NCBI GenBank assembly: GCA_013151745.1
Contig: JAADHS010000160.1
Span: forward strand, 1-61,102
Source of the DNA: Gammaproteobacteria bacterium
GTDB taxonomy: Bacteria > Pseudomonadota > Gammaproteobacteria > JAADHS01
Length of the DNA stretch: 61,102 bases
Direction: 5' to 3'
Part shown: positions 35,647 through 58,862 of the stretch, in pieces
Layout: each line of letters starts with the position of its first letter
How positions within the stretch are numbered: the stretch's first letter is position 1
Translations under genes and position numbers: made by a program
The notes under the pieces: model-generated
Databases searched by the model: none
Told to the model about the DNA's origin: nothing
Seen by the model: the letters and a program-made list of their open reading frames with translations, nothing else

Positions 35647-35882
35647 GAAACAATTCTCCCCAATATTCGAATTATTTTAATTCAAAAACATACTTCAAGC
35701 ATCAAGATTATATTTATAGCAGTAATCGATGGAAATGCAACACTTTTAATCATTATGTTACAGAGATTTATACCTTTTTGTTGTTTTTACGCAACAATCA
35801 TGTAAAGCGTATTGTGCTCTTTATATGTTGGCGTAAGGTATAATACTTATTACAATAATACTTAACACAGGGAGCCATAAAA

Positions 35883-37763: not shown

Positions 37764-37795
37764 TTTAATTCCTTATATTAATGGTAATAGCGCAG

Positions 37796-38431: not shown

Positions 38432-38432
38432 C

Positions 38433-39239: not shown

Positions 39240-39257
39240 AACACTCTCCTGTATGCC

Positions 39258-40292: not shown

Positions 40293-40325
40293 TTTGAACT
40301 CGACTCCCTAATGCTTTAAGTTTAA

Positions 40326-40511
40326 TTATTCGTGGTGACCATCATCATGTTGATGACTATGCTCAATTTCCTCGTGACTATGCTCGTGTTCATGCTCTTC
40401 TGTGACATCCCCATCATGAACATGAGTATGATGTCCGTCATCGTGACGATGGACATGGGTGTGAGTCACCTGACGGTGGATATGCCGATGATAAGTTACA
40501 TCACATGCCAT
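40326..40511 (-). CDS. 61-aa His-rich metal-binding protein (20 His)
   Basis: CAGGA RBS; (HX)n runs and two HDDGHH motifs; first gene of the operon. Confidence 0.75.
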   Translation of the reverse strand: MACDVTYHRHIHRQVTHTHVHRHDDGHHTHVHDGDVTEEHEHEHSHEEIEHSHQHDDGHHE

Positions 40512-40655
40512 CTGATTTTATCCTGCTTGAATATTAAAAAACCGAAAGGAGAATGGACATCTCGAACCTTATCGGCGTAACAATGAAAAAAGCAACAGCT
40601 TTTCTAGTACTTAATTTTCAGCTAAAAGCTTTATTTGCAAAACCAATTACCGCAA

Positions 40656-40714
40656 GTAGCATGATTTAGAGAATCATAGCACCGACCGTGCTACGATGTC
40701 AACACTCGTGCTAC
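40656..40714. promoter_or_regulatory. Candidate NikR operators overlapping a leftward sigma70 promoter
   Basis: GTAGCAT-N13-ATAGCAC-N5-GTGCTAC-N13-GTGCTAC; minus-strand TTGACA (40697-702), N18, TATGAT (40673-78) with extended TG. Confidence 0.7.
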
Positions 40715-40753
40715 TTTACCTGGGAAAATACGTTTTCCAAACTAAAGCTTCAC

Positions 40754-40783
40754 TTGAAATGGCCGTTAGTGAATCTGTATATT
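40754..40783 (+). promoter_or_regulatory. Candidate sigma70 promoter for the 88-aa His-rich gene
   Basis: TTGAAA-N18-TATATT. Confidence 0.45.
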
Positions 40784-40837
40784 CGACAACGGGGTTATCA
40801 AACTTCAATCTAAAAAACAATCAAGGAAACTTTGACT

Positions 40838-41104
40838 ATGGAAGGTAAGCACCAACATTCACATACCCACGAACATCAACACTCACATCAACATGAGCAT
40901 GTACATACGCACGAAGATGGCACTCAGCACAGTCACGGCCATGAACATAACCATGCGCACGCACATGGCCATGAACATGCGCATCAGCATAACCACGCGG
41001 CAGACAGCAATGAACATGACCATCAACATGAGGAAAGTGAACTAGAAGATCATGAGCACAACCACCCCGGCCATGAAAATGAATCCCACGATCATAGCCA
41101 TTAA
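40838..41104 (+). CDS. 88-aa His-rich protein (33 His), Hpn-like metal-storage candidate
   Basis: AAGGA RBS; runs of 11 and 12 alternating His joined by EDGTQ; downstream hairpin near 41125-41155. Confidence 0.85.
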   Translation: MEGKHQHSHTHEHQHSHQHEHVHTHEDGTQHSHGHEHNHAHAHGHEHAHQHNHAADSNEHDHQHEESELEDHEHNHPGHENESHDHSH

Positions 41105-41188
41105 AAAACCTACATAAACAAACACTCAGGCGTGTCTACGCAGTGCATGCCTGAGGTTAGTACCCTCTCAACAAAACGATAGATTAAT

Positions 41189-41225
41189 CTTAGAAAACGC
41201 AGTTGGACGCGAATGTAGAGTGCAA
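41189..41225 (+). repeat. Dispersed intergenic repeat, copy 4 (right bracket of the nikR locus)
   Basis: TAGAAAACGCAGTTGGACGCGAATGTAGAGTGCAA. Confidence 0.85.
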
Positions 41226-41295
41226 GTCGGATACGCACTAAAGAAGCAGTTATCAGTCAGGGCGTAATAAATTTTTTATTTTTACTCAGGCTAAA

Positions 41296-43761
41296 TCAAC
41301 GCCATTGAGATTCTGCCAACCACTTATCAAACTCATCGACTGGTAAAGGTCGACTGATGAAATATCCCTGCACCAAATCACACCCCAACTCAGCCAAGCG
41401 GTCATAACTTTCTTTATTTTCCACACCTTCCGCAATGACTTGCAAGCCAATATTGTGCGCCAAATCTATTATGGAACGCACAATGACCGCATCGTTGTCA
41501 TTGCTAAACATACCCATGACAAACCCCTTATCTATTTTTATTTCTTTCACAGGTAATTGTTTCAGATAGGCAAGAGAGGAATATCCCGTTCCAAAGTCAT
41601 CGATAGATAAATCAATGTTCATATCATTCAGATGCACCAACACCCCTTCCGCTCTTGCAGGATCGGCCATAATAGCTGTTTCGGTAATTTCGAACCAAAG
41701 CTTGCATTCGGCCCGCCCTAAATTACTCACAATATTAGAAACACGTCGAGGAAAGTCGCTATCCTGAAGGTTTCGCACCGATAGATTAATGGCCATATCA
41801 ACATGGATGCCTGCTTCGTACCATGTGCTTAGCTGCATCAAAGCACGCTTCAACACCCATAACGTCAGAGGCAAAATCAAACCACTTTGCTCAGCAAAAG
41901 GGATAAATGAATCCGGCAACATCAAACCTCGCTTAGGATGCTGCCAACGAACCAGGGCTTCAACACCCATCAAACGTCCAGATTGTAAACTTACTTTAGG
42001 TTGAAAATACAAGACGAGTTGATTTTGCTCTATGGCCTCTCTCAAATCACCCAATAGAGCCAAACTACTCGGTTTGTGCTCATCTTTTGCGGGGTCGTAA
42101 ATAGAAAAACCTTGAGCTGCGCGCTTGGCAACATACATTGCAACATCAGCCATTCTCAGCAATGTCATTTCATCCTTTGCATGCTCCGGATAAAGTGCCG
42201 CACCAATACTCCCACCCACATGTAACAATTGATCATCGATAAGAAATGCATTTTCCAATGAAAACAGCATTTTTTTAGCCACTTTTTCTGCATGTTCTAT
42301 ATCAGAAGAAGGCAATAACACAGCAAACTCATCGCCGCCCAAGCGGGCAATGGTATCGGACTCACGCAAAGTTTCTCGCATTCGAACAGCAACTTGCTGC
42401 AACACCACATCACCATAGTGATGTCCCAAAGTATCATTAATTTCTTTGAAGTGATCCAGATCCATTAACAATAAACTAAACTGCTCACCGGATCTCTGCG
42501 CCAATAAAACAGTCTGCTTTAATCGGTCCGTCAATAAGGTACGGTTAGGCAAACCCGTCAAGCTGTCATGCAATGCGGCATGCTCCATGATCGCCATTTG
42601 ACGCTTTCGTTCCGTAATGTCCCTGATCACACCAACAAAATAACGCCCATCATCAAGCAACATTTCACTGACACTCAACTCAATAGGAAAAATAGTACCA
42701 TCTTTTTTTAAGCCCTCCAGTTCACGAGCCGGTAGACCAATTATTTTCGGCTCCCCTTCATTCACATAAGCATTTACCGGTTTTTCATGGTGAGCAGCAT
42801 AAGGTTCCGGCATCAATACTTCAATCGACGCCCCAAATAATTCTTCATATTGATAACCAAAGGTCTGCAATGCAGCAGGATTAACTGATTCTATCTTACC
42901 CTGCTCATCCATAATTAAAATTCCTTCAAGTACACTATCCATGACGGCACTAACCCGGACTTCACTCTGCCGAATATGCTTTTGCATTTCGTTAAAACGT
43001 GCAGCTAACCTGCCTAATTCATCTTTTCGGTCAACCAATAGAAGAACTTCCCGGTCCCCTTCTGCAACGCTGGATATAGCGGTGAAAAGTTCAGACAACG
43101 GATCTAACACACTCCATCGAAAAATAAAAAAGAGTGCACTACCCAAGATTGAAACTAGGACGAAGGCAATAATCCACAAGTTGCGCTGTAACTGCGTGAT
43201 GCGTGCTGCTCTCGTTTCTGTGGAAATTGAAAGTTTCAGTACCCCTCTCAGACTAGCGCTTTCATAACCATGGCATGACAAACATGCGGTATCAGCCTTA
43301 ATCGGCATAAGCACCGTTATTTCATCGTTATCACCTAAGTTAAAAGAGGTGTTGCCACGCAGAGCCTGCTGAAAAAAATCGGCATCCGCTATTTGTATCT
43401 GTTGGAGAGGGGAAGGGGTTCGCTCAAATATGGGAATACTCAAGAATTCGTTAACGGCATTAACCGTTGATAAATCTGTGAAGGCTTCATTACCATCACG
43501 TCTGTAAATTTTAATATCCGCAATACCCTCGGCCTTGCCCATTCTATCCAGCCACTGGCGTGCGAGCGTACCTTGGCCATTGAGCATCAGCGTTTGTAAA
43601 CTGGCAAGCAACGTCTTGGCATGAACTTCTGCCTGATCAATTTCTTCTTGATAAATAGTATTGACCAACTGCTTCTGGATCCAAAACCCAGCCACCAACA
43701 TCAGCATAAACAAAACAGCCGACATCAATAAAGCCAAGCGCGTTCCCAGACTATTCATCAC
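41296..43761 (-). CDS. Membrane c-di-GMP cyclase/phosphodiesterase with periplasmic heme-c, HAMP, PAS, GGDEF and EAL domains
   Basis: Two TMs flanking CLSCH; DELGRLA; MPEPYAAHH PAS; RLGGDEF; EALVRW and DDFGTGYSS. Confidence 0.93.
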   Translation of the reverse strand: MMNSLGTRLALLMSAVLFMLMLVAGFWIQKQLVNTIYQEEIDQAEVHAKTLLASLQTLMLNGQGTLARQWLDRMGKAEGIADIKIYRRDGNEAFTDLSTVNAVNEFLSIPIFERTPSPLQQIQIADADFFQQALRGNTSFNLGDNDEITVLMPIKADTACLSCHGYESASLRGVLKLSISTETRAARITQLQRNLWIIAFVLVSILGSALFFIFRWSVLDPLSELFTAISSVAEGDREVLLLVDRKDELGRLAARFNEMQKHIRQSEVRVSAVMDSVLEGILIMDEQGKIESVNPAALQTFGYQYEELFGASIEVLMPEPYAAHHEKPVNAYVNEGEPKIIGLPARELEGLKKDGTIFPIELSVSEMLLDDGRYFVGVIRDITERKRQMAIMEHAALHDSLTGLPNRTLLTDRLKQTVLLAQRSGEQFSLLLMDLDHFKEINDTLGHHYGDVVLQQVAVRMRETLRESDTIARLGGDEFAVLLPSSDIEHAEKVAKKMLFSLENAFLIDDQLLHVGGSIGAALYPEHAKDEMTLLRMADVAMYVAKRAAQGFSIYDPAKDEHKPSSLALLGDLREAIEQNQLVLYFQPKVSLQSGRLMGVEALVRWQHPKRGLMLPDSFIPFAEQSGLILPLTLWVLKRALMQLSTWYEAGIHVDMAINLSVRNLQDSDFPRRVSNIVSNLGRAECKLWFEITETAIMADPARAEGVLVHLNDMNIDLSIDDFGTGYSSLAYLKQLPVKEIKIDKGFVMGMFSNDNDAVIVRSIIDLAHNIGLQVIAEGVENKESYDRLAELGCDLVQGYFISRPLPVDEFDKWLAESQWR

Positions 43762-43833
43762 CCAACCACAACCTTGTTTCCGCCGCTATAAACACAAACC
43801 ACCTATAAGCGCGCTCTTTGGTTTTCTACAATG

Positions 43834-45114
43834 TTACGGCTTTTGTATATCAGACCAGGTACTTTGAGCAATGCGCGCGACACCACCAAAACTACCTATC
43901 CAAATACTATCTTCAACGCCATCAGCCATGGAAAATACATTATTTGCAAACAAGCCATCACGCACTGTGAAATTGGTAAATGTGTTTTTTTCCTGATCCA
44001 TTCGTGCCAAGCCTTTACTCGTACCGACCCATAACGTATCACTCGTATCCATATAGAGCATAAAAATATGATTGCCTGGCAAGCCATCTGCCGTAGTGAA
44101 ATTCGTCCATTTATTTCCATCAAAATGAGCCAGCCCACCGCCCCAGGTGCCTGCCCAAACATCGCCGGACGCATCAACTTCCAAGGAAATAATATAATTA
44201 GGATTATAAGCGACATCGATATCCGACAAACCTTGCTCTGCTTTTTGTTGAGCATGATGCCGGGATGCTTTTGCCGGATCATTGGTAAATTTTATGGCAT
44301 CTCGCACTGATTCGATCGGCGCACCCAAACCATCTTCATGCTGCCAGTTTGTCCATTTTCCGTCTTGATAACGCGCCAAACCCGTTTCAGTTGCAAACCA
44401 CATCTCGCCATTCACACCTTCTTCAACACCGTAAACCCAGGGGTTGGGTAAGCCACCCTCTGTATTTTCTACCGTAAACGTATCCCAGCCCTCAGGGTCA
44501 TCCAAACGAGCACCCGCGACTCGATTCACACCAGACCAGGTCGCGATCCAAAGATCGCCATTGCTTGCCAGCTGGCTGTCATAAACAAATTGATCCGCCA
44601 AACCTTGCGGTACATTGTAATTGGACCACAAACCCGTGTTGACGTCCATGACCGACAAGCCTCCACCATAACTCCCGACCAGAAGACGATCATCAATACG
44701 GCTAACGTGAAAAATACCATTCGACAAAATACCGGGAGTTTTATTATCAAATACCGTGTATTGATCCGAACTTGTATCATAACGTATTACCCCACCGGAG
44801 GTTGCGAACCAAACTTGTCCGGCTTCCGCATAAATACCTTTGACATTGCGATTACCAATTTCAAAATGCGCAATACGCCCGGTATCAGGCAAACCTACCG
44901 TACCTGCTCCCGAATCCAGAATTTGTGCGCGTGCAGTTGCAGTTTGAATGGGCTGGGAAGAAGAGACATCGGTATTTATACTTGCGTCGGGCAAGTCACT
45001 CTCTTTAACAACCGTTTGCTCTTTAACAATCGGTTCTTGTTGTCCCAGATTATAAGAAAACAGCGCAATAGCCACGGCAATAACTAAAAAAATTCCAATT
45101 TTTTGGTAACCCAT
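43834..45114 (-). CDS. Exported beta-propeller protein (two-component-regulator propeller repeats)
   Basis: N-terminal TM; repeats W(F/I/V)(A/G)TxxG(L/V) and DGLxxNxV; YNPNY motif. Confidence 0.85.
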   Translation of the reverse strand: MGYQKIGIFLVIAVAIALFSYNLGQQEPIVKEQTVVKESDLPDASINTDVSSSQPIQTATARAQILDSGAGTVGLPDTGRIAHFEIGNRNVKGIYAEAGQVWFATSGGVIRYDTSSDQYTVFDNKTPGILSNGIFHVSRIDDRLLVGSYGGGLSVMDVNTGLWSNYNVPQGLADQFVYDSQLASNGDLWIATWSGVNRVAGARLDDPEGWDTFTVENTEGGLPNPWVYGVEEGVNGEMWFATETGLARYQDGKWTNWQHEDGLGAPIESVRDAIKFTNDPAKASRHHAQQKAEQGLSDIDVAYNPNYIISLEVDASGDVWAGTWGGGLAHFDGNKWTNFTTADGLPGNHIFMLYMDTSDTLWVGTSKGLARMDQEKNTFTNFTVRDGLFANNVFSMADGVEDSIWIGSFGGVARIAQSTWSDIQKP

Positions 45115-45136
45115 TAACCTCAGCCTCTAACTACGA

Positions 45137-46330
45137 TTACTTCTTCTGTTGCTGTCGCTCAGCGGGTTTGCCTTTAGCCAAACGCGCCACGCCCGTTCGT
45201 GTACCGACCCATATTTCACCCGCTGGAGTGGCTTGTATCGCATAAATACTATTACCCATTAAACCGTCTTTGCTTTGATAGGTCTGCCAGTTTTCACCAT
45301 CATAATAAGACAAACCTTGATTAGTACCAAACCAATAATTTCCATCTGCATCTTGATCCATGCTAAAGACCACATTACTTGCCAAGCCATCTTGAACCGT
45401 ATAGTTATGCCACTTTTTACCATCATAACGACTCACGCCCCCACCCCAGGTACCCACCCAAACATCACCAGAATCTGCTACCATCAAACAGAACACATAG
45501 TTTGGATTATAGGTTTCTCGCCCTTCGGTCAATATGCCCAGGTCATGGCGAGAGCGGGTACCCAGCCCAGTATTAATGCTGGTGGGTAAATCGGCTTCGT
45601 TGGCAGCGCCCATACCTTCTTTATTTGTCCAGGCGTGCCATGTCTCACCATCGTACATGGAGACGCCCCCTTCCGTACCCAGCCACACTCGATCCTGGGC
45701 ATCAACATCGATACCATAGACCCATTCATTGACCAGCTCTTCAACATAAGTTTCGAAATTCTCTCGCGCCGCATCCAGCCTGTTTACACCCGCCCAAGTA
45801 CCGATCCATAAAGTGCCATCGGACTGTTCAGTGATCGAATAAACCCAATAATCGGCTAAGCCGTGCATTGGAAAAAAGGTCTCCCATTCGCCCTTTTTAT
45901 AGGCCGTCAAACCACCGCCATTCGTGCCAAACCAACTGACTCCGGTTTTATCGACAAAAGCAGAAAAAATATATTCATTCGCCAGACCCTCCGCTCTTGT
46001 AAACACATCGCGCACATCTCGACTGAGTAAATCGATATAAAGCAGGCCGACTGAGGTGCCTATCCAAATGGCTCGTTCTGCTTTGTCCATCGCCAAAGAT
46101 CGTACATAAACATCTTTACCCACACCAAATGCTTCATGCACATAAAAGGTTTTTGCTTGCTGTACATTTTCATCGTTTTTTTGTGAAGGAAAAACGAGAG
46201 TAGACGTTTCAGCGGGCGCCTTAGGCAAGGAGGCATCAGAATCAAGTGCCTCCGAACCAGAGCTACACGATAACAACCCACCCAAAATACAAAATATAGA
46301 AAAATTTTTAAGAGTGGTCGAATACATCAA
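45137..46330 (-). CDS. Beta-propeller lipoprotein, paralog of the adjacent gene
   Basis: Lipobox GLLSC; same propeller repeats; SRH...YNPNY motif. Confidence 0.85.
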   Translation of the reverse strand: MMYSTTLKNFSIFCILGGLLSCSSGSEALDSDASLPKAPAETSTLVFPSQKNDENVQQAKTFYVHEAFGVGKDVYVRSLAMDKAERAIWIGTSVGLLYIDLLSRDVRDVFTRAEGLANEYIFSAFVDKTGVSWFGTNGGGLTAYKKGEWETFFPMHGLADYWVYSITEQSDGTLWIGTWAGVNRLDAARENFETYVEELVNEWVYGIDVDAQDRVWLGTEGGVSMYDGETWHAWTNKEGMGAANEADLPTSINTGLGTRSRHDLGILTEGRETYNPNYVFCLMVADSGDVWVGTWGGGVSRYDGKKWHNYTVQDGLASNVVFSMDQDADGNYWFGTNQGLSYYDGENWQTYQSKDGLMGNSIYAIQATPAGEIWVGTRTGVARLAKGKPAERQQQKK

Positions 46331-46344
46331 ATCGTCTTCTCAAT

Positions 46345-46656
46345 CTAGAGGAAAGTTCGAAGGTAAGCAACAACATCATCCATCTCATCACGAGTCAGAA
46401 TCCCCTGAAAAGCAGGCATGATTTCTTTACCTTGCTCGATAATGTCAAGCAAATCCCTGTTCGGTTTGAATAAACCCTGACCTCGGGTAAAATCCGGTAC
46501 ACTCGGCATCGTCCCCCGCCCGTCATTACCATGACAGGTCGTACAGTGACGACTGTATATTTGTCCACCATTGGCAGAATCAGCAGCATAAGTCACGCCA
46601 CTCAATAACAAACCCACAAGAAACATCGCGACGACACCCTGTCTTTTTTTAATCAT
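46345..46656 (-). CDS. Small monoheme c-type cytochrome
   Basis: Signal peptide, CTTCH, distal IMPAF; start moved to 46656. Confidence 0.9.
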   Translation of the reverse strand: MIKKRQGVVAMFLVGLLLSGVTYAADSANGGQIYSRHCTTCHGNDGRGTMPSVPDFTRGQGLFKPNRDLLDIIEQGKEIMPAFQGILTRDEMDDVVAYLRTFL

Positions 46657-46681
46657 GATTTCACTCCGAGTTTTTTCTGCC

Positions 46682-47245
46682 TTATTCAAGTTTATTAATT
46701 TCTTGTGTGATTTGATCAACCATGGTGCGCGTATGCCAAACTTGCTCGCCCACATAACGTGCAATTAAACGGCCATTCTTATCAATTAAAAAGGTATGTG
46801 GATAAGCCACAATGCCCAGCTTTTCATTCGCTTCTAGCCCGTCAATGTCGACATAATTATTGTAAGTCACCCCTTGGTCAGACAAATACTCCTGAACCAG
46901 GTCAACATCATGATCAATAGACAGGCCAACCACTGCAAAAGCATGTTCTTTTAGAATTTGCTCTAACTTTTCCAAACTCGGCAATTCTTTGCGACAGGGT
47001 GGACACCAGGTCGCCCAAAGATTCAAGAGCACAACTTTATCCTGTAGTCGTGCATTCAGCGATATCGGCTCTCCCTGCAATGTGCTCACGCTTAGCTCAG
47101 GAAAAGAGGTGCCTAGCGTGAGGCTATCAGGTGCCAGCTCTGATTGTTCACAGCCGCCCAACAACACACTAGCCATCAGCATCAATAACAGCTGGGTCTG
47201 TCTTTTTTTAAAACCTGAACTCTGCTTATGGCACCACATTGTCAA
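46682..47245 (-). CDS. TlpA-family thiol:disulfide oxidoreductase, probable lipoprotein
   Basis: LLGGC lipobox; NLWATWCPPCRKELP; start uncertain. Confidence 0.9.
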   Translation of the reverse strand: MTMWCHKQSSGFKKRQTQLLLMLMASVLLGGCEQSELAPDSLTLGTSFPELSVSTLQGEPISLNARLQDKVVLLNLWATWCPPCRKELPSLEKLEQILKEHAFAVVGLSIDHDVDLVQEYLSDQGVTYNNYVDIDGLEANEKLGIVAYPHTFLIDKNGRLIARYVGEQVWHTRTMVDQITQEINKLE

Positions 47246-48521
47246 TCATAATATTCAGCCCGACCTGGCCCACATCAATCACGGCCGTTGTGCCTTCGAA
47301 ATCACCACTTTGAGCGATGGCATCGCCTGACCTGGATATCCGGGCACTCACAATAATTTGCGGATAATCAGCCAGCGACATGCCCGACATCATCGCCATT
47401 TTTTCATCTAGAGTAAATTCATATGGCAAATCTTGCGCTTGTTTTTTCACTATCGCTAATGGCATACGCGGCCCGTCCACTGCACGCGCATAAATAAAAA
47501 CGGTATCAGTCGGTGAAATTTGTTCTTGATACTCTGGGTCAACTCGTACTGTACCCGAGACGAAAGTCGGGCCTTTTATCACCGCAGCGACCCGTTCTTC
47601 TTCTGGCGGAATAGCACGACCCTCTGCCCTGAGTCGCGCCTCTATCTCGGCTATATTGGTCTCCATTGTATTCGCTTCTTGCGAACCGGGCTGAACGATA
47701 TTTTTCAGTCTACGCCAATAAGACAAAGCAAGCTCATAATCACCCCGTTCATAATGATACGTTCCAGCCAGCCACAAAGATTGAACATTAACCGGGTTTA
47801 ACTCCAATGATTTTCGAATTAAACGCATAGGTCGACCATCCAGACTACCTTCTGCTGCCATGGCAAGCGTATCGGCAAAATCAGCAAGCAGTTGCGGATT
47901 TGTTTCAACCAACGGCATCGCTTTTTCAAACGCGATAACCGCATCAGCGTGTTTTTGTTGAAAGCGGTAAGAACGCGCCAACATCAACCAGCCTTCGATA
48001 TCATCAGGATTTTCTTCTAAACTCGCTGCCAACTGGTTCACCATCGCTTCAACCTGGGCACCGGTATCCGGATGTTCCACTGAAGCACTACCTGTATCGG
48101 AACCTTCTCCAGCTACCGCTACAACCGGAGGAACACCCGTCACCGCCGTTGGACTGCCTAACTCCATATAGAGTAAAATAGAACACAAGGGAATAAGCAC
48201 AGCCAAAGCAATCACTAATGGGCGGCCACTCGGCTCTGTTGTTGTCTGAGTGGTCGACCCACTGGCATTTTTTTTTGCACCCTCCACATCTTGCAAGAGA
48301 CGACGTTCAATTTCATGCTTCGTGCGCTCATAATATTCAAGGGTAATAGCACCATTTTGATTGTCGCGTTCCAGTTCAGCGAGCTGATCTTTATATATTG
48401 ATACGTTCAGTTCATCATGTTCAATGACTTTATCAGCCACCCTCTTGGACAACAAAGGCGGCAATACAAACAGCATTGCGGCAACAAAAAGACTAGCCGC
48501 AATAATCCAAAAAACAACCAT
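47226..48521 (-). CDS. ccmI: Cytochrome c biogenesis protein CcmI/CycH
   Basis: NVSIYKDQLAELE, EIERRLL, TPRs (GWLMLARSY), GPRMPLA...ARISRSG. Confidence 0.93.
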   Translation of the reverse strand: MVVFWIIAASLFVAAMLFVLPPLLSKRVADKVIEHDELNVSIYKDQLAELERDNQNGAITLEYYERTKHEIERRLLQDVEGAKKNASGSTTQTTTEPSGRPLVIALAVLIPLCSILLYMELGSPTAVTGVPPVVAVAGEGSDTGSASVEHPDTGAQVEAMVNQLAASLEENPDDIEGWLMLARSYRFQQKHADAVIAFEKAMPLVETNPQLLADFADTLAMAAEGSLDGRPMRLIRKSLELNPVNVQSLWLAGTYHYERGDYELALSYWRRLKNIVQPGSQEANTMETNIAEIEARLRAEGRAIPPEEERVAAVIKGPTFVSGTVRVDPEYQEQISPTDTVFIYARAVDGPRMPLAIVKKQAQDLPYEFTLDEKMAMMSGMSLADYPQIIVSARISRSGDAIAQSGDFEGTTAVIDVGQVGLNIMIDNVVP

Positions 48522-48524
48522 AAC

Positions 48525-49004
48525 CTACTTCTCCCCCGCCTCTTTATTAAGTAGAGCGGATACTCTGACCTGATCTTCCTTAGATAAGGGAGTCATATCA
48601 TCAATCACATTATCTTTTGTACGTGCTAAATTTTTGTATAGTAAAGCCAGCGCACCAAAGAATAATAAAGCCGGACCTAACCAAAGTGCTAAAGTAGAAA
48701 GCTTAAAAGCAGGTCGGTATCTTACAAAATCGCCGTAACGCTCTTCCATATAGCTCACTATTTCAGTTTCACCTTTTCCTTCTTCCACCATTTCACGAAC
48801 CTGTCGTCGTAAGTCAACGGCCACCCCAGCATCCGAGTCGGCTATAGTCTGGTTTTGACAAACCAGACAACGCAGCTCTTTAGAGATCTCCATGACCTGG
48901 GCTTCAACAACGGGATCCTCAGCCATGGGCGTCGCTTCTTTAGCCAAGCTATCCGTAACCCCAATTGCCAATAAAATAATAACCAGGCTAAAAAAGCGCA
49001 TCAC
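48525..49004 (-). CDS. ccmH: Cytochrome c biogenesis protein CcmH
   Basis: LRCLVCQNQ, RYGDFVRY. Confidence 0.95.
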   Translation of the reverse strand: MMRFFSLVIILLAIGVTDSLAKEATPMAEDPVVEAQVMEISKELRCLVCQNQTIADSDAGVAVDLRRQVREMVEEGKGETEIVSYMEERYGDFVRYRPAFKLSTLALWLGPALLFFGALALLYKNLARTKDNVIDDMTPLSKEDQVRVSALLNKEAGEK

Positions 49005-49546
49005 CCCTGCAACTCCTTGATTTTTGGAATAATAATTTTTTCTAAATCCTGGTACGTAACCGGACCGATATGCTTGTATTGAATGATGCCATTTTTATCA
49101 ATAATAAACGTTTCCGGCGCACCATAAACACCCCAGTCAATAGCCACACGACCCTCATAATCAAATGCAATATAAGTATAGGGATCCCCACCATGTGTAC
49201 GCAACCACAGCTGTCCGTCTTTACGCTCATCTTTATAGTTAAGCCCAACGATCGCCACAAAATTGCGCTTGGCTAATTCTATAAAAGCAGGATGCTCAAT
49301 ACGACACGAAGGACACCACGACGCCCAAACATTAAACAACCATACTTTTCCCTTCATCTGGCTCGTAGAAAAAGTTGCGTTGGCATCGTGCAGTGTAGGC
49401 AGCTCAAATACCGGCGCTGCTTTACCAATCAAAGGTGAGGGTACTTCTGAAGGCTTCAGAGATAACCCCCTATATAAAAAACCAGCCAAAATCAAAAACA
49501 GAGCCAAAGGCAACAAATAACGAAGAGAACGAAAAAAACGAGCCAT
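49001..49546 (-). CDS. ccmG: Thiol:disulfide interchange protein CcmG/DsbE
   Basis: WASWCPSCRIEHP, GLNYKD, GVYGAPET. Confidence 0.95.
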   Translation of the reverse strand: MARFFRSLRYLLPLALFLILAGFLYRGLSLKPSEVPSPLIGKAAPVFELPTLHDANATFSTSQMKGKVWLFNVWASWCPSCRIEHPAFIELAKRNFVAIVGLNYKDERKDGQLWLRTHGGDPYTYIAFDYEGRVAIDWGVYGAPETFIIDKNGIIQYKHIGPVTYQDLEKIIIPKIKELQG

Positions 49547-49550
49547 AATA

Positions 49551-51569
49551 CTACCCCTCCGCTGGCACAGCAGGGGAAGATTTGTTTCCAGATTTCCCTT
49601 CTTCTTTTTCGACTTTTAATGGATTACGACGACGCACTGTTAATCGATATCGTTTATCCGTCATTGCCAGCAAGCCACCCAAAGCCATAAAACCCGCACC
49701 GGCCCAAATCCAGGCGACTAAAGGTTTGTAATAGAGGCGTACACTCCAGGAACCACCACCGACAGGCTCACCTAGCGAAACATAAATTTGCTCAAAGAAG
49801 GTCGATTCAATAGCCGCCTCAGTCATCGGGTTAGTTTGCACGGTATAAACCCGTTTTTCAGGTTGCAACAAGGCAAAGGGCTTATCATCTTTACTCACAA
49901 CAATAATACCGCGTTGCGCTTCGTAATTGGGCCCAGGCACCTTGACCACACCATCAAACAAAAAGGTATAGCCCGACAAGGTGATCGTATCGCCCACATC
50001 CATGCGAACATCTTTTTCTTGTTCAAAACCTTTAACAAAAGTCACACCCAAGACAAAAATGCCAATACCAAAATGCGCAACAACCATGCCCCAAAAATGC
50101 ATAGGTTGTTTTGCCAACTTAACGATGACCGATTGATCGCTGTTCATTGAGTTAACACGGTTGACGATATTAACAAACACAGAGGCAATAACCCATCCTG
50201 CTAATAAGGTGCCGAAACTGACTAATAGCGATCCGCCCCCCATTAAAAGAGGTAAAACAATCGCCGCAATAACACCGGCAAGCAAGGCCCATTTTAAACG
50301 TGCCTTGAGTTCAGGGATTGCTGCCTGCTTCCACTTGGCTATCGGGCCAACCCCCATCAAAAATAACACAGGCACCATGAGAGGGAAAAATACAGCATTA
50401 AAATAAGGCTCACCCACTGACAGCTTACCCATCCCCATCGCATCATGAATAAGAGGATAGATCGTACCCAACAGGACTGCACCACAAGTCACGGATAACA
50501 TAACATTACCGGTTAACAACATCGATTCACGAGAAACCAATTTAAAGTCTCCGCCAAAACCGACTTTCGGCGCACGCCATGCAAATAATGCCAGTGAACC
50601 ACCGACGACGACCCCAAGGAAAAGCAAAATATAAGAACCTCGTTCTGGGTCGGTAGCAAAAGCATGAACAGAAACTAACACACCAGAACGCACTAAAAAC
50701 GTACCCAGCAAACTCAAAGAAAATACCGTAATGGCCAACAGCAAGGTCCAGTTACGAAATGTACCTCGTTTATCGGTGACCGCCAAAGAATGAATCAGTG
50801 CCGTCCCCGCGATCCACGGCAAAAAAGAAGCATTTTCTACGGGATCCCAAAACCACCAGCCACCCCAGCCCAGTTCGTAGTAGGCCCACCAGCTACCGAG
50901 TGCAATACCTACTGTTAAAAATGCCCAAGCTGCCGTCGTCCAGGGACGAGACCAGCGCGCCCAAGCGGCATCAATACGACCGCTGATCAACGCGGCAATC
51001 GCAAAAGCAAAGGCAACAGAAAAACCAACATAGCCCATGTACAAGAGCGGCGGATGAATCACCAAGCCTGGGTCTTGCAACAAAGGGTTGAGATCACGAC
51101 CATCCAGAGCCGCTGGAAACAGGCGCTCAAAAGGATTAGAAGTTAACAACAAAAACAAAAGGAAACCGATAGAAAGAAAACCCAACACACCCACCACGCG
51201 CGCAAGAGTCTGATCGTCAATACTGCGGCTAAAAAGGGTGACACCAACCGTCCATAAAGAAAGAAAAAGAATCCATAAGAGCATCGACCCTTCATGCCCC
51301 CCCCATACCGCAGCGAACTTGTACATGGTTGGCATCAATGAATTTGAATGATTCGCCGCATAAAGCACCGAAAAATCATCCTGTAAAAAAGCGTAGGTTA
51401 AACAAACAAAGGCTAAAGCGACAAACACACATTGCCCCTGAGCAACCGGTTTGGTCAGCGCCATCCAGGAGGCATAGCCCTTATGAGCACCGACCAACGG
51501 AAAAAATGTTTGTATTATTGACAAACACAAAGCGATAATCAGAGCTAACTGCCCTATCTCTGGAATCAT
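49551..51569 (-). CDS. ccmF: Heme lyase CcmF
   Basis: WGGHEGS, HPPLLYMGY, WGGWWFWDPVEN, SVHAF. Confidence 0.97.
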   Translation of the reverse strand: MIPEIGQLALIIALCLSIIQTFFPLVGAHKGYASWMALTKPVAQGQCVFVALAFVCLTYAFLQDDFSVLYAANHSNSLMPTMYKFAAVWGGHEGSMLLWILFLSLWTVGVTLFSRSIDDQTLARVVGVLGFLSIGFLLFLLLTSNPFERLFPAALDGRDLNPLLQDPGLVIHPPLLYMGYVGFSVAFAFAIAALISGRIDAAWARWSRPWTTAAWAFLTVGIALGSWWAYYELGWGGWWFWDPVENASFLPWIAGTALIHSLAVTDKRGTFRNWTLLLAITVFSLSLLGTFLVRSGVLVSVHAFATDPERGSYILLFLGVVVGGSLALFAWRAPKVGFGGDFKLVSRESMLLTGNVMLSVTCGAVLLGTIYPLIHDAMGMGKLSVGEPYFNAVFFPLMVPVLFLMGVGPIAKWKQAAIPELKARLKWALLAGVIAAIVLPLLMGGGSLLVSFGTLLAGWVIASVFVNIVNRVNSMNSDQSVIVKLAKQPMHFWGMVVAHFGIGIFVLGVTFVKGFEQEKDVRMDVGDTITLSGYTFLFDGVVKVPGPNYEAQRGIIVVSKDDKPFALLQPEKRVYTVQTNPMTEAAIESTFFEQIYVSLGEPVGGGSWSVRLYYKPLVAWIWAGAGFMALGGLLAMTDKRYRLTVRRRNPLKVEKEEGKSGNKSSPAVPAEG

Positions 51570-51604
51570 AGCACTCTCCTTGGAGTCTATTTTATAATGA
51601 CTAA

Positions 51605-52081
51605 TTAATTAGCTATTAAAGTCGTCGTGGTTGATTTGCTATCATTTTCAGCTTTTGCCTGCTGGCCTTTTTCCAACGCTTCTGCTACTTCAGGCGGCAT
51701 ATAGGTCTCGTCATGCTTGGCTAAGACTTCCTCCGCCCGAAACAGATTACTCGATTCCAGACGACCTTGTGTTACCACACCCTGCCCCTCACGAAACAAA
51801 TCGGGGAGAATGCCAACAAACACCACCGGCATATCAACTGCGTGATCCGTTACAATAAAGTTAACGGTCAAGCCATCGTCTTGACGTTCGATACTCCCCT
51901 CTTTCACCAAACCGCCTAAACGAAAGGGTCGATCAACAGGCGCTTCATTCGCCATGACCTGAGTCGGACTAAAAAAGAAAACCATATTACTTTGAAACGC
52001 ATTTAATACAAGCGCGGCAGCGATACCTATACCGGCTACGCCCCCCACAATAAATGCAATTTTTTTATACCTGCGCTTCAT
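51605..52081 (-). CDS. ccmE: Heme chaperone CcmE
   Basis: GILPDLFREGQG, LAKHDETY. Confidence 0.97.
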   Translation of the reverse strand: MKRRYKKIAFIVGGVAGIGIAAALVLNAFQSNMVFFFSPTQVMANEAPVDRPFRLGGLVKEGSIERQDDGLTVNFIVTDHAVDMPVVFVGILPDLFREGQGVVTQGRLESSNLFRAEEVLAKHDETYMPPEVAEALEKGQQAKAENDSKSTTTTLIAN

Positions 52082-52250
52082 CTTTTTGCCTCTTAGTCAT
52101 TCTTACCATACGACACACTCGCTGCCAAACCATTTTTCGGTGCTGCTTTAACCATACTAATTCAACGATAATGCAAAAAAGGGTCAATCCATAACAGCTC
52201 CACACATAAACGGAATACCGCCCCATATCCAGTGCTTCTGCAATGCTCAT
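52065..52250 (-). CDS. ccmD: Heme exporter protein CcmD
   Basis: MGRYSVYVWSCYG, TM plus basic tail; lies between ccmC and ccmE. Confidence 0.88.
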   Translation of the reverse strand: MSIAEALDMGRYSVYVWSCYGLTLFCIIVELVWLKQHRKMVWQRVCRMVRMTKRQKDEAQV

Positions 52251-52993
52251 TTTTTTTCACCTTCTTGCACGAGTGCTGCAACCCAATCCGTTTTGCTCTC
52301 GCGCTGTAAAATTTCAGTGCGAACACGAGAAAGCGCGACCCCTATGGTGTAAGACCAAAAGCAAAGTGTCATCAGCAAAATAGAAATCAGCATCTCTACG
52401 CCCATCGTCGATTCATTTAATTTCAATGAAGGCGGCTGATGCAAGGTACTCCACCAAATAACAGAAAAATAAATAATCGGAACATTAACAATGCCAACCA
52501 ACGCCAGCAATCCCGTTGCTTTTGCAGCACGACGGGGATCTTCAATCGCGGCACCCAAAGCAATAAACCCAATGTACAAAAAAAACAGGATGAGCTCACT
52601 GGTCAGGCGAGCATCCCATACCCACCAAGTCCCCCATGTGGGCTTACCCCATACCGCCCCTGTAACCAAGGCGAGAAAAGCAAAGAGCGCACCGGTCGGC
52701 GCTAAACTTTTAGCCATCATTGCTGACAAACGCGTATTCCAAATCAAACCTGACGCCGCCCACATCGCCATAACAACATAGATAAACATCGACATCCAGG
52801 CAGTAGGAACATGGATAAACATAATTTTATAAGACTGACCTTGCTGGTAATCTGCTAATGGCGCTTCAAAAAAAGAATAATAAAGACCCGCAATACCCAA
52901 CAATGCCGCTGCCCACATAAACCATGGAATCATCTTTCCTGCAAGGGGATAGAACGTCGCGGGGGCCGCATATTTAAATATATTAATTTTCAA
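52247..52993 (-). CDS. ccmC: Heme exporter protein CcmC
   Basis: IHVP, WGKPTWGTWWVWDARLT, TLHQ. Confidence 0.96.
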   Translation of the reverse strand: MKINIFKYAAPATFYPLAGKMIPWFMWAAALLGIAGLYYSFFEAPLADYQQGQSYKIMFIHVPTAWMSMFIYVVMAMWAASGLIWNTRLSAMMAKSLAPTGALFAFLALVTGAVWGKPTWGTWWVWDARLTSELILFFLYIGFIALGAAIEDPRRAAKATGLLALVGIVNVPIIYFSVIWWSTLHQPPSLKLNESTMGVEMLISILLMTLCFWSYTIGVALSRVRTEILQRESKTDWVAALVQEGEKK

Positions 52994-53001
52994 AAACTAA
53001 C

Positions 53002-53670
53002 CTACTCAACTGAAATTTTTAATGCTGCAGCCGTTGCCCAGGGTGCCAGCACCACAGAGACAAACAATCCCGCGCCCAATAAAGACAAGTGCGCCTGCGC
53101 ACCTAAGCCCGACGCACTGGCTTCCACCGCACCCGCACCAAAAACCAAAACGGGTATATATAAAGGCAAGATCAGCAAAGAGATCAACACCCCGCCCCCT
53201 CTGACCCCAAGCGTTAAAGCCGCACCAATCGCACCAATCAAACTCAAAATGGGGGTACCTAACATTAAAGCGCCTATCAATACAATGATAGCCTCGCCGT
53301 CCAAATCAAATTGCAAGCCCATCACTGGCGCAATAAAAACCAAAGGCAAACCGGAAACCAACCAATGCGCAAAAACTTTCCCTAAAACCAAGATAGACAA
53401 GGGTTGCGGCACCAACAACATTTGCTCCAACGTGCCATCAACATAGTCATTATAAAACAATCGACCCAATGCCAGCATGGAGGCCAACAATGCGGCAACC
53501 CAAACTACACCCGGCGCAATTTTCCTTAAAGTATCCGCCTCCGGGCCCACTCCTAAAGGAAAGAGGCTGACCACAATAATAAAAAAAAACAAAACGGTCA
53601 AAAAATCTGCGCGCCGTCGCATGGCTAACAGTAACTCTCTACGCACCACCGAAAAAAACGCAGAAAACAT
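53002..53670 (-). CDS. ccmB: Heme exporter protein CcmB
   Basis: LFPLGVGP, DYVDGTLEQ, LPLYIPVLVFG. Confidence 0.96.
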   Translation of the reverse strand: MFSAFFSVVRRELLLAMRRRADFLTVLFFFIIVVSLFPLGVGPEADTLRKIAPGVVWVAALLASMLALGRLFYNDYVDGTLEQMLLVPQPLSILVLGKVFAHWLVSGLPLVFIAPVMGLQFDLDGEAIIVLIGALMLGTPILSLIGAIGAALTLGVRGGGVLISLLILPLYIPVLVFGAGAVEASASGLGAQAHLSLLGAGLFVSVVLAPWATAAALKISVE

Positions 53671-53677
53671 AAAATTC

Positions 53678-54295
53678 CTAGTGTTTCAAATGGATATGAC
53701 GAACATGAACACCTTCAAGCGCAACTTCTTGGTGCGTCGTTAAAATCACCATCCCGCCTTGCTGCACATGATGGACAATCACATCCTGTAACACCGCAAC
53801 AGCGGCAACATCCAGCGCGGTAAAAGGTTCATCCAAAATCCATAACTTACTCTTATTCAATATAAAACGAGCTAATGCCGTACGTTTTTTTTGGCCTTGA
53901 GAAAGAACGCTGGTAGGTAATTCCTGGCAAATTTCCACACCTAATTTAGCCAAAACTAAAGAGATTTGCTCTTCCGTCACCCGCACACCAGCTAAATGGG
54001 CTGAAATCGTTAAATTTTCCAGGGCCGTCAGCTCATCCTTCAATCCATTCAAGTGGCCAAAATAGGAAATATGTCGATGATAATCCTCTGCAAGCTTGCT
54101 TGTTTGCTCGCCATCCCAAGTAATGTCACCTGCCTCAGGCACTACTAAACCACAGATTGCACGTAATAATGTGGTTTTGCCACTCCCATTGGGGCCATGC
54201 ACATACAGCACTTCACCTTCAGTCAAGCCAAAAGAGAGACCTTCGAACAATTGATTATCCCCTCGCACGCAGGCAAGATTACTTACTTCCAACAT
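53678..54295 (-). CDS. ccmA: Heme ABC exporter ATPase CcmA
   Basis: GPNGSGKTT, LSQGQKKR, WILDEP, TTHQ. Confidence 0.96.
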   Translation of the reverse strand: MLEVSNLACVRGDNQLFEGLSFGLTEGEVLYVHGPNGSGKTTLLRAICGLVVPEAGDITWDGEQTSKLAEDYHRHISYFGHLNGLKDELTALENLTISAHLAGVRVTEEQISLVLAKLGVEICQELPTSVLSQGQKKRTALARFILNKSKLWILDEPFTALDVAAVAVLQDVIVHHVQQGGMVILTTHQEVALEGVHVRHIHLKH

Positions 54296-57850: not shown

Positions 57851-57854
57851 CATC

Positions 57855-58853: not shown

Positions 58854-58862
58854 CCCGCACAG

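Follow-up and report, generated by a model that had tools for sequence, protein, structure and literature searches.

The genes that follow ccmI in this DNA include a conserved core of three, which encode a small cytochrome c and two β-propeller proteins, here called propeller A (propA) and propeller B (propB). The window, meaning the whole stretch of 61,102 nucleotides that was analysed, belongs to a gammaproteobacterial contig, and the gene order seen in it is found again in 82 loci, spread over many gamma- and betaproteobacterial families and one Nitrospinota genome. Since the order is repeated across dozens of genomes, the arrangement is far beyond chance, and because the genes are conserved together elsewhere they are a real unit. 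The trio is widely conserved yet uncharacterised, and we tentatively favour the reading that it is a cytochrome-coupled periplasmic receptor that feeds interchangeable transmitters.

All genes of the cluster lie on the minus strand, in the order ccmABC(D)EFGHI, TlpA-like thioredoxin, monoheme cytochrome c, propA, propB and a GGDEF-EAL protein. The System I cytochrome c maturation operon comprises ccmA, B, C, (D), E, F, G and H (48525..54295; Pfam ABC_tran, CcmB, Cytochrom_C_asm, CcmE, CcmF_C, Redoxin and CcmH) and ends with ccmI (cycH; 47226..48521), which matches Ig_CycH (E 1e-34), TPR_CcmH_CycH (E 3e-20) and TIGR03142 CcmI (E 3e-32). The sequence-only reading had described five co-directional genes 3′ of ccmI with an overlap or gaps of no more than 72 bp, and this is borne out: the thioredoxin gene overlaps ccmI by 20 nt, and the later gaps are 25, 14, 22 and 72 nt.

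The first of the five genes (46682..47245) encodes a TlpA/ResA-like periplasmic thiol:disulfide oxidoreductase (Redoxin, E 3e-23; CPPC at residue 81), a probable lipoprotein with the lipobox LLGGC, which scores below the curated cut-offs for both TlpA (E 1e-24) and ResA (E 1e-22). The cytochrome c ORF runs from 46345 to 46764, and its likeliest start is the ATG at 46656. The resulting gene (46345..46656) encodes a small soluble monoheme class I cytochrome c of 103 aa including its signal peptide (Cytochrome_CBB3, E 9e-14), with CTTCH at residue 38 and a probable Met ligand in EIMPAF. All members of the cytochrome c cluster have the CxxCH motif, and in 70 of 78 loci this first gene of the trio directly precedes propA. 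The propA and propB genes are themselves adjacent in all 76 related loci able to show the pair.

PropA (45137..46330; Reg_prop, E 2e-27) is a lipoprotein with the lipobox LLSC, a linker of about 35 aa and a seven-bladed Reg_prop β-propeller, and propB (43834..45114; Reg_prop, E 7e-18) consists of an N-terminal hydrophobic anchor in the inner membrane, a linker of about 55 aa and a Reg_prop β-propeller. The two are paralogues with 37% identity, and they are stand-alone proteins with no fused transmitter, as originally noticed. They also share the insert that had been noticed in both, SRHDLGILTEGRETYNPNY in propA (from residue 260) and SRHHAQQKAEQGLSDIDVAYNPNY in propB (from residue 284). The family-specific patterns of this insert are NTGLGTRSRHDL...TYNPNY in propA and DPAKxSxHHAxQKxEQGL...AYNPNY in propB, and the alignments, with 23 propA and 26 propB relatives, show no variation in its key residues, nor in propA Cys22 of the lipobox in the former and propB H286, H287 and YNPNY in the latter. 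Overall conservation is strong, with column identities that average 57–59% across Gamma and Beta lineages and Nitrospinota. In E. coli, a Ser at position +2 after the lipobox Cys targets a lipoprotein to the outer membrane; propA has Ser at this position, which suggests, by that sorting rule, that it is targeted to the outer membrane. An AlphaFold2 model of propA (pLDDT 84.6) finds its best PDB matches in the BT4663, BT3049 and BT4673 domains (E down to 4e-19, 20–24% identity), and the repeats are thus of the sensor type, as had been supposed. Among the best 120 longer relatives (28–40% identity), most are twin-propeller plus Y_Y_Y proteins fused to a kinase, sigma-54 AAA, SpoIIE or cyclase output.

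The last gene (41296..43761) encodes an 821-aa protein with the domain order TM/heme-c sensor/TM/HAMP/PAS/GGDEF/EAL (GGDEF, E 2e-45; EAL, E 7e-77). Its motifs (RESD...GGDEF at 466–479; EAL at 601, EITE, DDFGTG, KID, EGVE and QGY) indicate that it is probably a bifunctional c-di-GMP enzyme. The heme motif CLSCH at residues 160–164 is flanked by two hydrophobic segments, and all 12 full-length orthologues retain CxxCH. Pfam scores for the sensor domain are sub-threshold (Mcp40H-20_sensor, E 1e-3; Tll0287-like, E 3e-3), and the best fold matches of its predicted structure are GSU0935 and GSU0582 (3b42, E 3.7e-5; 3b47, E 1.4e-3; 5b82 at rank 12), with low TM-scores of 0.30–0.52; judged from motif and model, the domain is of the c-heme sCache type. 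In an even sample of the class, every one of the 17 genomes with a strong match to this domain (E <= 2e-57) also has the trio, the match lying within 400 nt of propB in 16 of them and about 1.6 kb away in the remaining one, and the gene recurs beside the trio in eight families of the sample. Within it, the orthogroup is linked exclusively to the trio.

The trio's other neighbours vary. Of 57 loci, 42 have cytochrome c biogenesis genes upstream in the same orientation (System I in 20, System II in 21 and a CcmI-like gene alone in one), and none was found nearby in the other 15, including the Gallionella loci L003 and L054. Among the 53 loci in which both flanks are present, 38 have a signalling gene adjoining the trio: a kinase and a sigma-54 regulator in 16, these together with a hybrid PAS kinase in 10, and GGDEF-EAL in 12; the other 15 have none. 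The proposed association with both cytochrome biogenesis and signalling therefore stands. The trio swaps its signalling partner from lineage to lineage, and the sigma-54 regulator and the GGDEF-EAL protein are mutually exclusive, with no locus of the 53 carrying both. Ten Burkholderiales loci have, in place of the fused domain, a stand-alone Tll0287-like heme protein adjoining the kinase. Directly after propB there is a GGDEF-EAL gene in 13 of 63 loci, a Kelch propeller in 9 and a cytochrome in 7. Genes located downstream include an NHL propeller with a multiheme cytochrome (15 of 52 loci) and tri- or diheme cytochromes (18 of 52); in this genome the NHL propeller, a pentaheme and two triheme cytochromes are on another contig (C48:727-4884). 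The pentaheme cytochrome tracks the trio genome-wide, in that 25 of the 26 genomes that have it also have the trio, often on different contigs.

On the reading we tentatively prefer, the soluble monoheme cytochrome c, the lipoprotein propA and the membrane-anchored propB would make up a three-protein periplasmic module. What it signals to whichever transmitter the neighbouring gene encodes would be the state of the c-type cytochrome or electron-uptake chain in the periplasm, or a ligand linked to that chain. Here the transmitter would be the downstream GGDEF-EAL membrane protein, whose predicted periplasmic c-heme sCache-type domain would share a compartment with the trio and whose HAMP and PAS relay would set the balance of GGDEF against EAL activity and so the c-di-GMP level. 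Contact between the proteins, the redox nature of the signal and the direction of information flow are what we infer. The genes ride on the ccm operon, it would seem, because three of the six products require periplasmic heme attachment or thiol reduction. Points in favour of a receptor are the sensor-type fold and homology, the conserved trio, its interchangeable signalling neighbours, the exclusive orthogroup linkage and the c-heme sCache sensor domain, together with expression in Ca. Tenderia electrophaga. There, expression is recorded for every orthologue from Tel_16635 to Tel_16660, with length-adjusted values of 9.19 (ccmI), 8.56 (thioredoxin), 8.97 (cytochrome c), 8.52 (propA), 8.16 (propB) and 7.55 (GGDEF-EAL protein) (PMC5371394, supplementary file 3), and these are compatible with one transcript. 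The sequence-only reading had placed c-di-GMP turnover at the receiving end. This fits the 17 of 17 genomes above, but GGDEF-EAL is beside propB in only 13 of 63 loci and other lineages have a kinase with a sigma-54 regulator or a hybrid kinase; c-di-GMP turnover is not the core output, and the overall interpretation is supported in part.

Several observations count against a receptor, and some of them agree with its main rival, an electron-transfer scaffold or enzyme, which we consider possible if somewhat doubtful. Where a regulator is adjacent, a sigma-54 promoter separates the regulator gene from the Sel1/cytochrome c unit (as with TGGCACGGAAATCGCT in loci L042 and L062; such motifs are present in 16 of 70 loci, compared with 166 of 2754 background windows), so that there the trio is a regulated target and not necessarily an input. 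The periplasmic domain of the adjacent kinase is poorly conserved (34% mean column identity) beside the conserved propellers, which is odd if the two dock. The 15 loci with no signalling neighbour, and those with a Kelch propeller or cytochrome after propB, also sit badly with a receptor, and the co-occurrence of pentaheme and trio fits electron transfer at least as well. As a scaffold, the propellers would be tethered by their flexible linkers to the outer and inner membranes, as the propA Ser +2 and the propB anchor suggest, and would dock the small cytochrome c and organise the passage of electrons across the periplasm between multiheme conduits of the outer membrane and oxidases of the inner membrane; as an enzyme, they would carry out redox catalysis in partnership with the cytochrome. 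The signalling neighbours would then regulate the module or be merely co-expressed. High propeller conservation, the sigma-54 promoter of the loci that have a regulator, the downstream NHL, multiheme, tri- or diheme and Kelch genes, and the OmcE clusters (below) as an analogy speak for such a role, and the Tenderiales preprint (section 11) suggests that NHL propellers structure cytochrome complexes. Against it, the same propeller type is a sensor input in most of the longer relatives among the best 120, and neither alignment, of 23 propA or 26 propB sequences, contains a redox cofactor motif (no CxxCH and no conserved Cys besides the lipobox). The mutually exclusive signalling classes also argue against it, and the constant company of the GGDEF-EAL orthogroup is hard to square with that protein being an unrelated passenger.

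That the propellers and small cytochrome are specialised accessory factors, helping Ccm or Ccs with particular (multiheme) cytochromes by, for example, holding apocytochromes or handling heme, is unlikely. Biogenesis genes of both systems are frequent upstream, a TlpA/ResA-type thioredoxin is placed between them and the trio in 31 of 58 related loci, and the junctions with ccmI in the window are tight; this adjacency is equally explained by shared need, as three products of the unit are clients of Ccm or thiol reduction. C-type cytochromes are far more widespread than the propeller pair, which occurs in just 40 of 400 sampled genomes of the class and so is not a general factor. The loci lacking a nearby biogenesis gene also stand against it, and profile searches gave no similarity to known Ccm or Ccs components. 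Mere juxtaposition of unrelated genes after ccmI, with no common function, is highly improbable: scans of promoters (16 sites against 15.4 expected) and terminators (9 against 7.9) stay close to expectation and are uninformative, and it is already contradicted by the conservation across families and by the eight families in which the GGDEF-EAL gene accompanies the trio.

The cluster is already listed in the Tenderiales preprint, in whose words its three proteins "may be involved in regulation"; the preprint gives neither a function nor a wider distribution and does not mention the beta-proteobacterial sigma-54 form. As there, a bat-type operon is present in the window (55555-60518), whereas in Tenderia the NHL propeller, pentaheme and two triheme cytochromes follow the cluster directly. 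The OmcE nanowire clusters of Desulfuromonadia adjoin resB and ccsB and always include two β-propeller lipoproteins and multiheme cytochromes (PMC13712944). They resemble the present cluster in their adjacent heme maturation genes and two β-propellers, and differ in that here propA alone is a lipoprotein. Like the c-heme sCache/PAS-like sensors (the chemoreceptors GSU0582 and GSU0935, and Tll0287; DUF3365), the GGDEF-EAL protein has a predicted periplasmic domain that is enclosed by two TM helices and bears a single CxxCH close to its C-terminal end, and outputs of that group include GGDEF/EAL (preprint 10.64898/2026.02.01.703092). It falls short of the Pfam families (PF21563, 19.8 bits against a cut-off of 27; PF11845, 18.4 against 24.1), and when its profile is compared with that of the stand-alone Tll0287-like neighbours, the alignment covers no more than 25 columns at the heme motif, with a probability of 59%.

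TorT-TorS, LuxP-LuxQ and AioX-AioS-AioR are sensors that rely on a separate periplasmic binding protein, and the AioXSR regulator is sigma-54-dependent. The present loci would share with them the logic of a stand-alone periplasmic receptor whose gene adjoins that of a membrane transmitter, but TorT, LuxP and AioX have periplasmic-binding-protein folds, not propellers, and none is known to include a dedicated cytochrome c. In Bacteroides hybrid two-component sensors, paired propellers act jointly in the periplasm as the ligand-binding domain. BT4663 (PDB title) binds heparin fragments, and the BT4663, BT3049 and BT4673 domains (PDB 4a2l, 4a2m, 3v9f, 3va6) share the seven-bladed Reg_prop (PF07494) fold with the propellers described here. 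Unlike that type, the latter exist as two distinct proteins, the lipoprotein propA and the membrane-anchored propB, without a Y_Y_Y domain or fused transmitter; they carry the family-specific SxH...YNPNY insert and are encoded with a monoheme cytochrome c.

The sequence-only reading had described five co-directional genes behind ccmI, and Pfam and NCBIfam scans together with the junction coordinates agree with it on all points, both for the genes and for their spacing. The array lies on the minus strand. A gene for an FGE-sulfatase-like protein (54635-55528; E 6.5e-45), a kind of protein whose co-occurrence with the propellers the sequence-only reading had suggested checking, lies 340 nt upstream of ccmA; ccmA to ccmC and ccmE to ccmH occupy 54295 down to 48525 and, with ccmI (47226-48521; all by Pfam/NCBIfam), lead to a thioredoxin gene (46682-47245) that overlaps ccmI by 20 nt. 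A 103-aa monoheme cytochrome c (46345-46656; CTTCH, its start taken as the ATG preceding the signal peptide) is followed by two propeller proteins that are 37% identical, propA (45137-46330; 397 aa, lipobox LLSC, Reg_prop E 2e-27) and propB (43834-45114; 426 aa, N-terminal hydrophobic anchor, Reg_prop E 7e-18); these three are here called the trio. The last gene (41296-43761) encodes hDGC, an 821-aa protein with HAMP, PAS, GGDEF and EAL domains and a CLSCH motif at residues 160-164. The gaps after the thioredoxin gene are 25, 14, 22 and 72 nt. The thioredoxin, with a Redoxin match (E 3e-23), CPPC at residue 81 and a lipobox, is an exported protein with a CxxC active site like those of the TlpA/ResA family; NCBIfam gives it 87 bits for TlpA and 81 for ResA, short of the respective equivalog cut-offs (230 and 170), so that its membership holds at the family level only.

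The surroundings of the array contain several other gene sets. On the plus strand at 55555-61102, diverging from the FGE/ccm side, is a Bat/MoxR-type operon (MoxR AAA_3, DUF58, DUF4381 and two VWA proteins, one with TPR), a further ORF of which runs off the end of the window. The hDGC stop is followed by about 1 kb without a convincing gene (40293-41295), and directly downstream of the hDGC gene is what is likely a nickel-uptake-like set (37155-40292, minus strand; 34013-34498, plus strand; 34609-36944) with an outer-membrane channel (Phenol_MetA_deg), a DUF4198 protein and two family-less proteins, with NikR and two porins close by; the same genes are also found downstream in the 92%-identical relative L001 (L numbers denote loci in other genomes). 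A sulfur-related set at 17118-20606 (minus strand) comprises a Pyr_redox_2 flavoprotein (sulfide:quinone reductase-like), a TauE/SafE exporter and a metallo-beta-lactamase-fold protein, adjoined by DUF4197 and NnrU-like proteins. An Rfam scan of the whole window gave no match.

Both propellers score above the Reg_prop (PF07494) gathering cut-off of 20.4 bits (propA 92.2, propB 62.8), and the insert SRH...YNPNY that had been noticed in the two proteins is indeed present in each. An AlphaFold2 model of propA alone (pLDDT 84.6, with low confidence in the SRH loop at residues 256-263) has a seven-bladed propeller fold like that of BT4663: the top 10 Foldseek matches in the PDB are BT4663 chains (E 4e-19 to 3e-17, query TM-score 0.59-0.62), and the best matches overall are the periplasmic sensor domains of BT4663, BT3049 and BT4673 from Bacteroides hybrid two-component systems, followed by virginiamycin B lyase. 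The 120 best longer relatives (28-40% identity) are mostly twin-propeller and Y_Y_Y proteins fused to output domains (kinase, sigma-54 AAA, SpoIIE phosphatase or cyclase), and few are without a signalling domain. Thus the earlier assignment of these repeats to the ligand-binding type found in sensor kinases is upheld by fold and by relatives. No longer relative among these 120 reaches the approximately 50% identity typical of the subfamily, and so no fused "Rosetta stone" form was seen among them. A complex prediction for propA (56-397) and propB (76-426), each with its own alignment, scored 0.02 against a mark of 0.32 and speaks neither for nor against binding. A search of the ESM Atlas returned further unnamed Reg_prop clusters only.

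The propA search covered 5.8 billion proteins and gave 2621 relatives at E ≤ 1e-3 among 8000 candidates scored; the best 120 of them are 52-92% identical and are annotated as no more than "regulator" or "ligand-binding sensor domain-containing protein". A one-genome-per-species scan matched at least 601 stretches, at least 590 of which encode a propA relative. From these results 82 loci were compared, namely those most like the query profile plus four from a separate search; because they are the closest to the query and many are kin, the fractions that follow describe that set. They come from Chromatiales, Ectothiorhodospiraceae, Arenicellales, Tenderia, Porticoccus and Motiliproteus, and also from Gallionella, Rubrivivax, Hydrogenophaga, Rhodoferax, Noviherbaspirillum, Aromatoleum and one Nitrospinota genome. 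ORFs were called crudely (longest ORF from ATG, GTG or TTG) and labeled by phmmer against the window proteins and by all-against-all clustering, with representatives checked by Pfam; minus-strand members of the "Sel1" cluster were left out as antisense artefacts over kinase and regulator genes.

The neighborhood comparison proposed with the sequence-only reading shows the genes of the trio conserved together. propA and propB are adjacent in 76/76 loci with at least 1.3 kb beyond propA, and of the 78 loci that extend 400 nt or more upstream, 70 have a small CxxCH cytochrome directly before propA. When the Gammaproteobacteria were sampled evenly, the family was found at E ≤ 1e-60 in 40/400 genomes (36/348 high-quality genomes; 33/320 genera), nearly all carriers showing two adjacent matches, and the genome of the window itself has a single propA-propB pair. 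As a functional unit the trio is real, old and widespread; the window holds one lineage-specific form of it, and chance juxtaposition of the genes is excluded.

What accompanies the trio varies. Among 57 loci with at least 6 kb upstream, cytochrome maturation System I (CcmE/F/H) is present in 20, System II (CcsA/ResB) in 21 (in 5 of these with a CcmI-like gene), a CcmI-like gene only in 1 and none of these in 15. By their signaling genes, the 53 loci that cover both flanks fall into four classes: a HAMP histidine kinase with an NtrC-type sigma-54 regulator immediately upstream (16), this kinase and regulator together with a downstream PAS-PAS-kinase-REC-REC-Hpt hybrid kinase (10), a downstream GGDEF-EAL gene (12) and no signaling gene (15); the regulator and a GGDEF-EAL gene occur together in 0/53. 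In the 63 loci scored for the gene directly after propB, the heme-sensor GGDEF-EAL protein, the hybrid kinase and a Kelch propeller are each encoded there 9 times, a multi-domain cytochrome c 5 times, a shorter PAS-GGDEF-EAL protein lacking CxxCH 4 times and a multiheme cytochrome twice; the other 25 loci have different proteins at this place. Ahead of the cytochrome there is a Sel1-repeat protein in 30/58 loci, and ahead of the kinase a stand-alone Tll0287-like c-heme protein in 10/58 (CxxCH in 10/10). An NHL propeller with a multiheme cytochrome (15/52) and tri- or diheme cytochromes (18/52) are further companions, and ApbE also recurs.

The flavin transferase gene apbE follows the hybrid kinase in six Burkholderiales loci (L031, L036, L045, L062, L072 and L073), a hint that this version of the system includes a flavinylated periplasmic protein; a GAT-type flavinylation motif is not visible in the propA and propB consensus sequences. 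The periplasmic domain of the kinase has CxxCH in 0/31 cases, no Pfam family and weak conservation, and it offers no link to the hDGC sensor domain. With this kinase as query, no ortholog was found in the window's own genome, which returned only kinase-core matches (at most 31% identity).

In hDGC, hydrophobic segments at about residues 4-26 and 193-219 enclose the domain with CLSCH, and CxxCH is at the same place in 12/12 full-length orthologs; this conserved motif in a predicted extracytoplasmic domain between TM segments is one feature of c-heme sCache domains. The domain scores below the gathering cut-off of both candidate Pfam families, Mcp40H-20_sensor (PF21563; E 1e-3, 19.8 bits, cut-off 27) and Tll0287-like (PF11845; E 3e-3, 18.4 bits, cut-off 24.1). 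The PDB matches of its AlphaFold2 model (pLDDT 76.6) are headed by GSU0935 (E 3.7e-5), with GSU0582 at rank 4 (E 1.4e-3) and Tll0287 at rank 12, at low TM-scores of 0.30-0.52, and profile comparison with the stand-alone Tll0287-like neighbors aligned 25 columns around CxxCH only (probability 59%). A "sCache_heme" family with fusions to kinases, chemoreceptors and GGDEF/EAL enzymes is defined in a 2026 preprint (10.64898/2026.02.01.703092). The GGDEF domain of hDGC is intact with an RxxD I-site (RESD...GGDEF, 466-479; Pfam E 2e-45), and the EAL domain (Pfam E 7e-77) has EAL at 601, EITE at 691, DDFGTG at 721, KID at 742, EGVE at 778 and QGY at 798. We take these to be the usual catalytic motifs, and hDGC is accordingly predicted to be a bifunctional GGDEF-EAL c-di-GMP enzyme.

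The sensor domain was found at E ≤ 1e-15 in 24/400 genomes of the class sample, and its match table was compared with that of the propellers. All 17 strong matches (E ≤ 2e-57; 8 families) are in trio genomes and on the same contig as the propellers; 16 lie no more than 400 nt from the propB match and the remaining one about 1.6 kb from it. The weak matches number seven: four occur in trio carriers at some other place in the genome, and three in trio-less genomes. Among the strong matches, then, the enzyme was never seen without the trio, and the trio is often without the enzyme (23/40 genomes).

In beta-type loci the interval from the regulator gene to the Sel1/cytochrome unit contains a sigma-54 motif with intact GG and GC elements; it reads TGGCACGGAAATCGCT in L042 and L062 and is a perfect consensus in L051, L068 and L081. 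With at most two mismatches the motif is found in 16/70 loci, against a background of 166/2754 same-sized windows of the same loci, and 15 of these 16 are regulator-bearing. In ccm-linked gamma-type loci it is essentially absent (L030 only). The window's candidate for an internal sigma-54 promoter, TGGCCGTTTAATTGCA, is on the minus strand at 46775-46760, some 100 nt ahead of the start of the cytochrome c gene. It has two mismatches and was rejected, as window-wide counts are at chance (41 vs 38 expected) and the close relatives L001 and L002 have no counterpart. Since the motif is missing from ccm-linked gamma loci and the window candidate has no counterpart, read-through from the ccm operon into the trio genes would be the simplest reading for the window. 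A sigma-70 promoter and terminator scan of 40200-48600 was uninformative (16 and 9 sites vs 15.4 and 7.9 expected); its best sigma-70-like site, 11/12 with a TG extension, is at 40702-40673 (minus strand) in the 1-kb gap behind hDGC. Elsewhere in the window, a perfect sigma-54 consensus, TGGCACTTACATTGCT, lies at 32258-32273 (plus strand) inside the 3′ part of a fatty-acid hydroxylase gene, about 530 nt upstream of a 314-aa ORF (32807-33751) without a Pfam family.

A pentaheme-type cytochrome that follows the trio unit in many loci was found at E ≤ 1e-40 in 26/401 genomes, and 25 of these 26 have the trio, often on a different contig. Two further gene sets lie on other contigs of the window's genome. 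Contig C48 (727-4884) has, besides an NHL propeller and two tri-/diheme-type cytochromes, a pentaheme-type cytochrome that shares 75% identity with that of locus L005, and contig C124 (6096-16906) has two NHL propellers and a 963-aa open frame with multiheme similarity, a set that looks like a uet-type extracellular electron transfer cluster.

Two readings of the trio, as a receptor and as an electron-transfer scaffold or enzyme, are close to each other. A receptor is suggested by the sensor-type fold, by signaling neighbors in 38/53 loci whose kinds are mutually exclusive, by a c-heme sensor that is fused in the gamma type and stand-alone in the beta type, and by a GGDEF-EAL orthogroup that depends strictly on the trio. 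The sigma-54 promoter before the unit makes the trio a target and so points to a scaffold or enzyme, as do the conservation of the kinase sensor domain, weak beside the propellers' 57-59%, the presence of further propellers and cytochromes nearby, and the genome-wide tie of the pentaheme cytochrome to the trio. The two are mutually compatible and not exclusive, because an accessory protein can be both target and modulator of its sensor, as ZraP and CpxP are. The sequence-only reading had also offered the propellers as accessory factors for cytochrome maturation; System I or II is indeed upstream in many loci, but a general maturation factor is unlikely, given that the pair stands beside System II in 21/57 loci and beside neither system in 15/57, and that a System I (Ccm) component would be present wherever the system is and the pair is in 40/400 genomes (a count of the pair, not of Ccm).

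We put forward, tentatively and as a rather doubtful proposal, that the cytochrome c, lipoprotein propeller and membrane-anchored propeller make up a trans-periplasmic receptor of a new, cytochrome-coupled class, one that feeds interchangeable transmitters. Such a receptor would gauge how heavily the periplasmic c-cytochrome pool is loaded with electrons during extracellular or lithotrophic electron uptake, and the SxH...YNPNY inserts of both propellers might be a composite site for the cytochrome or a cofactor. In Tenderiales-like Gammaproteobacteria the reading would be passed to the c-heme sCache GGDEF-EAL enzyme, setting c-di-GMP and with it surface attachment, and in Betaproteobacteria to the kinase and sigma-54 regulator or to the hybrid kinase.

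About one in ten of the sampled class genomes carries the trio, and carriers include iron-oxidizing, electrode-oxidizing and denitrifying lineages. If the trio is a receptor, it would explain how the state of the periplasmic cytochrome chain is coupled to biofilm formation through c-di-GMP and to sigma-54-dependent expression in bacteria living on extracellular or mineral electron donors; current models of electroautotrophy and neutrophilic iron oxidation lack this link. If the trio is a scaffold, it would supply a structural part that those electron-uptake chains are missing. Both possibilities are testable in cultured carriers (Aromatoleum evansii KB740, A. toluclasticum, Hydrogenophaga, Rubrivivax, Noviherbaspirillum and Motiliproteus sediminis).

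Beyond one Tenderiales preprint, our literature search found no paper on these propellers (supplements of bioRxiv preprints, which were outside its scope, may hold orthogroup tables), and the words "propeller", "Sel1" and "ligand-binding" do not occur in the Gallionellaceae pangenome paper. The Tenderiales preprint describes exactly the window's neighborhood in Ca. Tenderia electrophaga, including the bat-then-ccm order (10.1101/2022.05.06.490989). According to this text and the Tel_16630-16660 coordinates, the "secondary c-type cytochrome cluster" of Tenderiales runs from a bat operon and type I ccm through a thioredoxin, a small cytochrome and two sensor-domain proteins to a heme c-di-GMP enzyme, the same order as in the window from 60518 down to 41296. 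In metatranscriptome data Tel_16630 to Tel_16660 are expressed, with length-adjusted values of 9.24, 9.19, 8.56, 8.97, 8.52, 8.16 and 7.55 and no response to electrode potential (FDR 0.30-0.99) (PMC5371394).

Compared with the Bacteroides hybrid sensors, in which two propellers, Y_Y_Y, a TM segment and a transmitter are in one chain, the window has its two propellers in separate genes, and neither propA nor propB has a PF07495 match or an output domain in Pfam. In two loci, L034 (Porticoccus) and L055 (Motiliproteus), propB is followed by a multiheme cytochrome, a PpiC-type isomerase, a protein of about 600 aa that matches no Pfam family, and then a cytochrome c7-like protein, a gene order that resembles uetA-uetB-uetC. 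In the Tenderiales cluster an NHL propeller, a pentaheme and two triheme cytochromes lie directly downstream, whereas the window has the nickel-uptake-like cluster at this place and its genome keeps the NHL, multiheme and tri-/diheme cytochrome genes on C48 (727-4884) rather than beside the trio.
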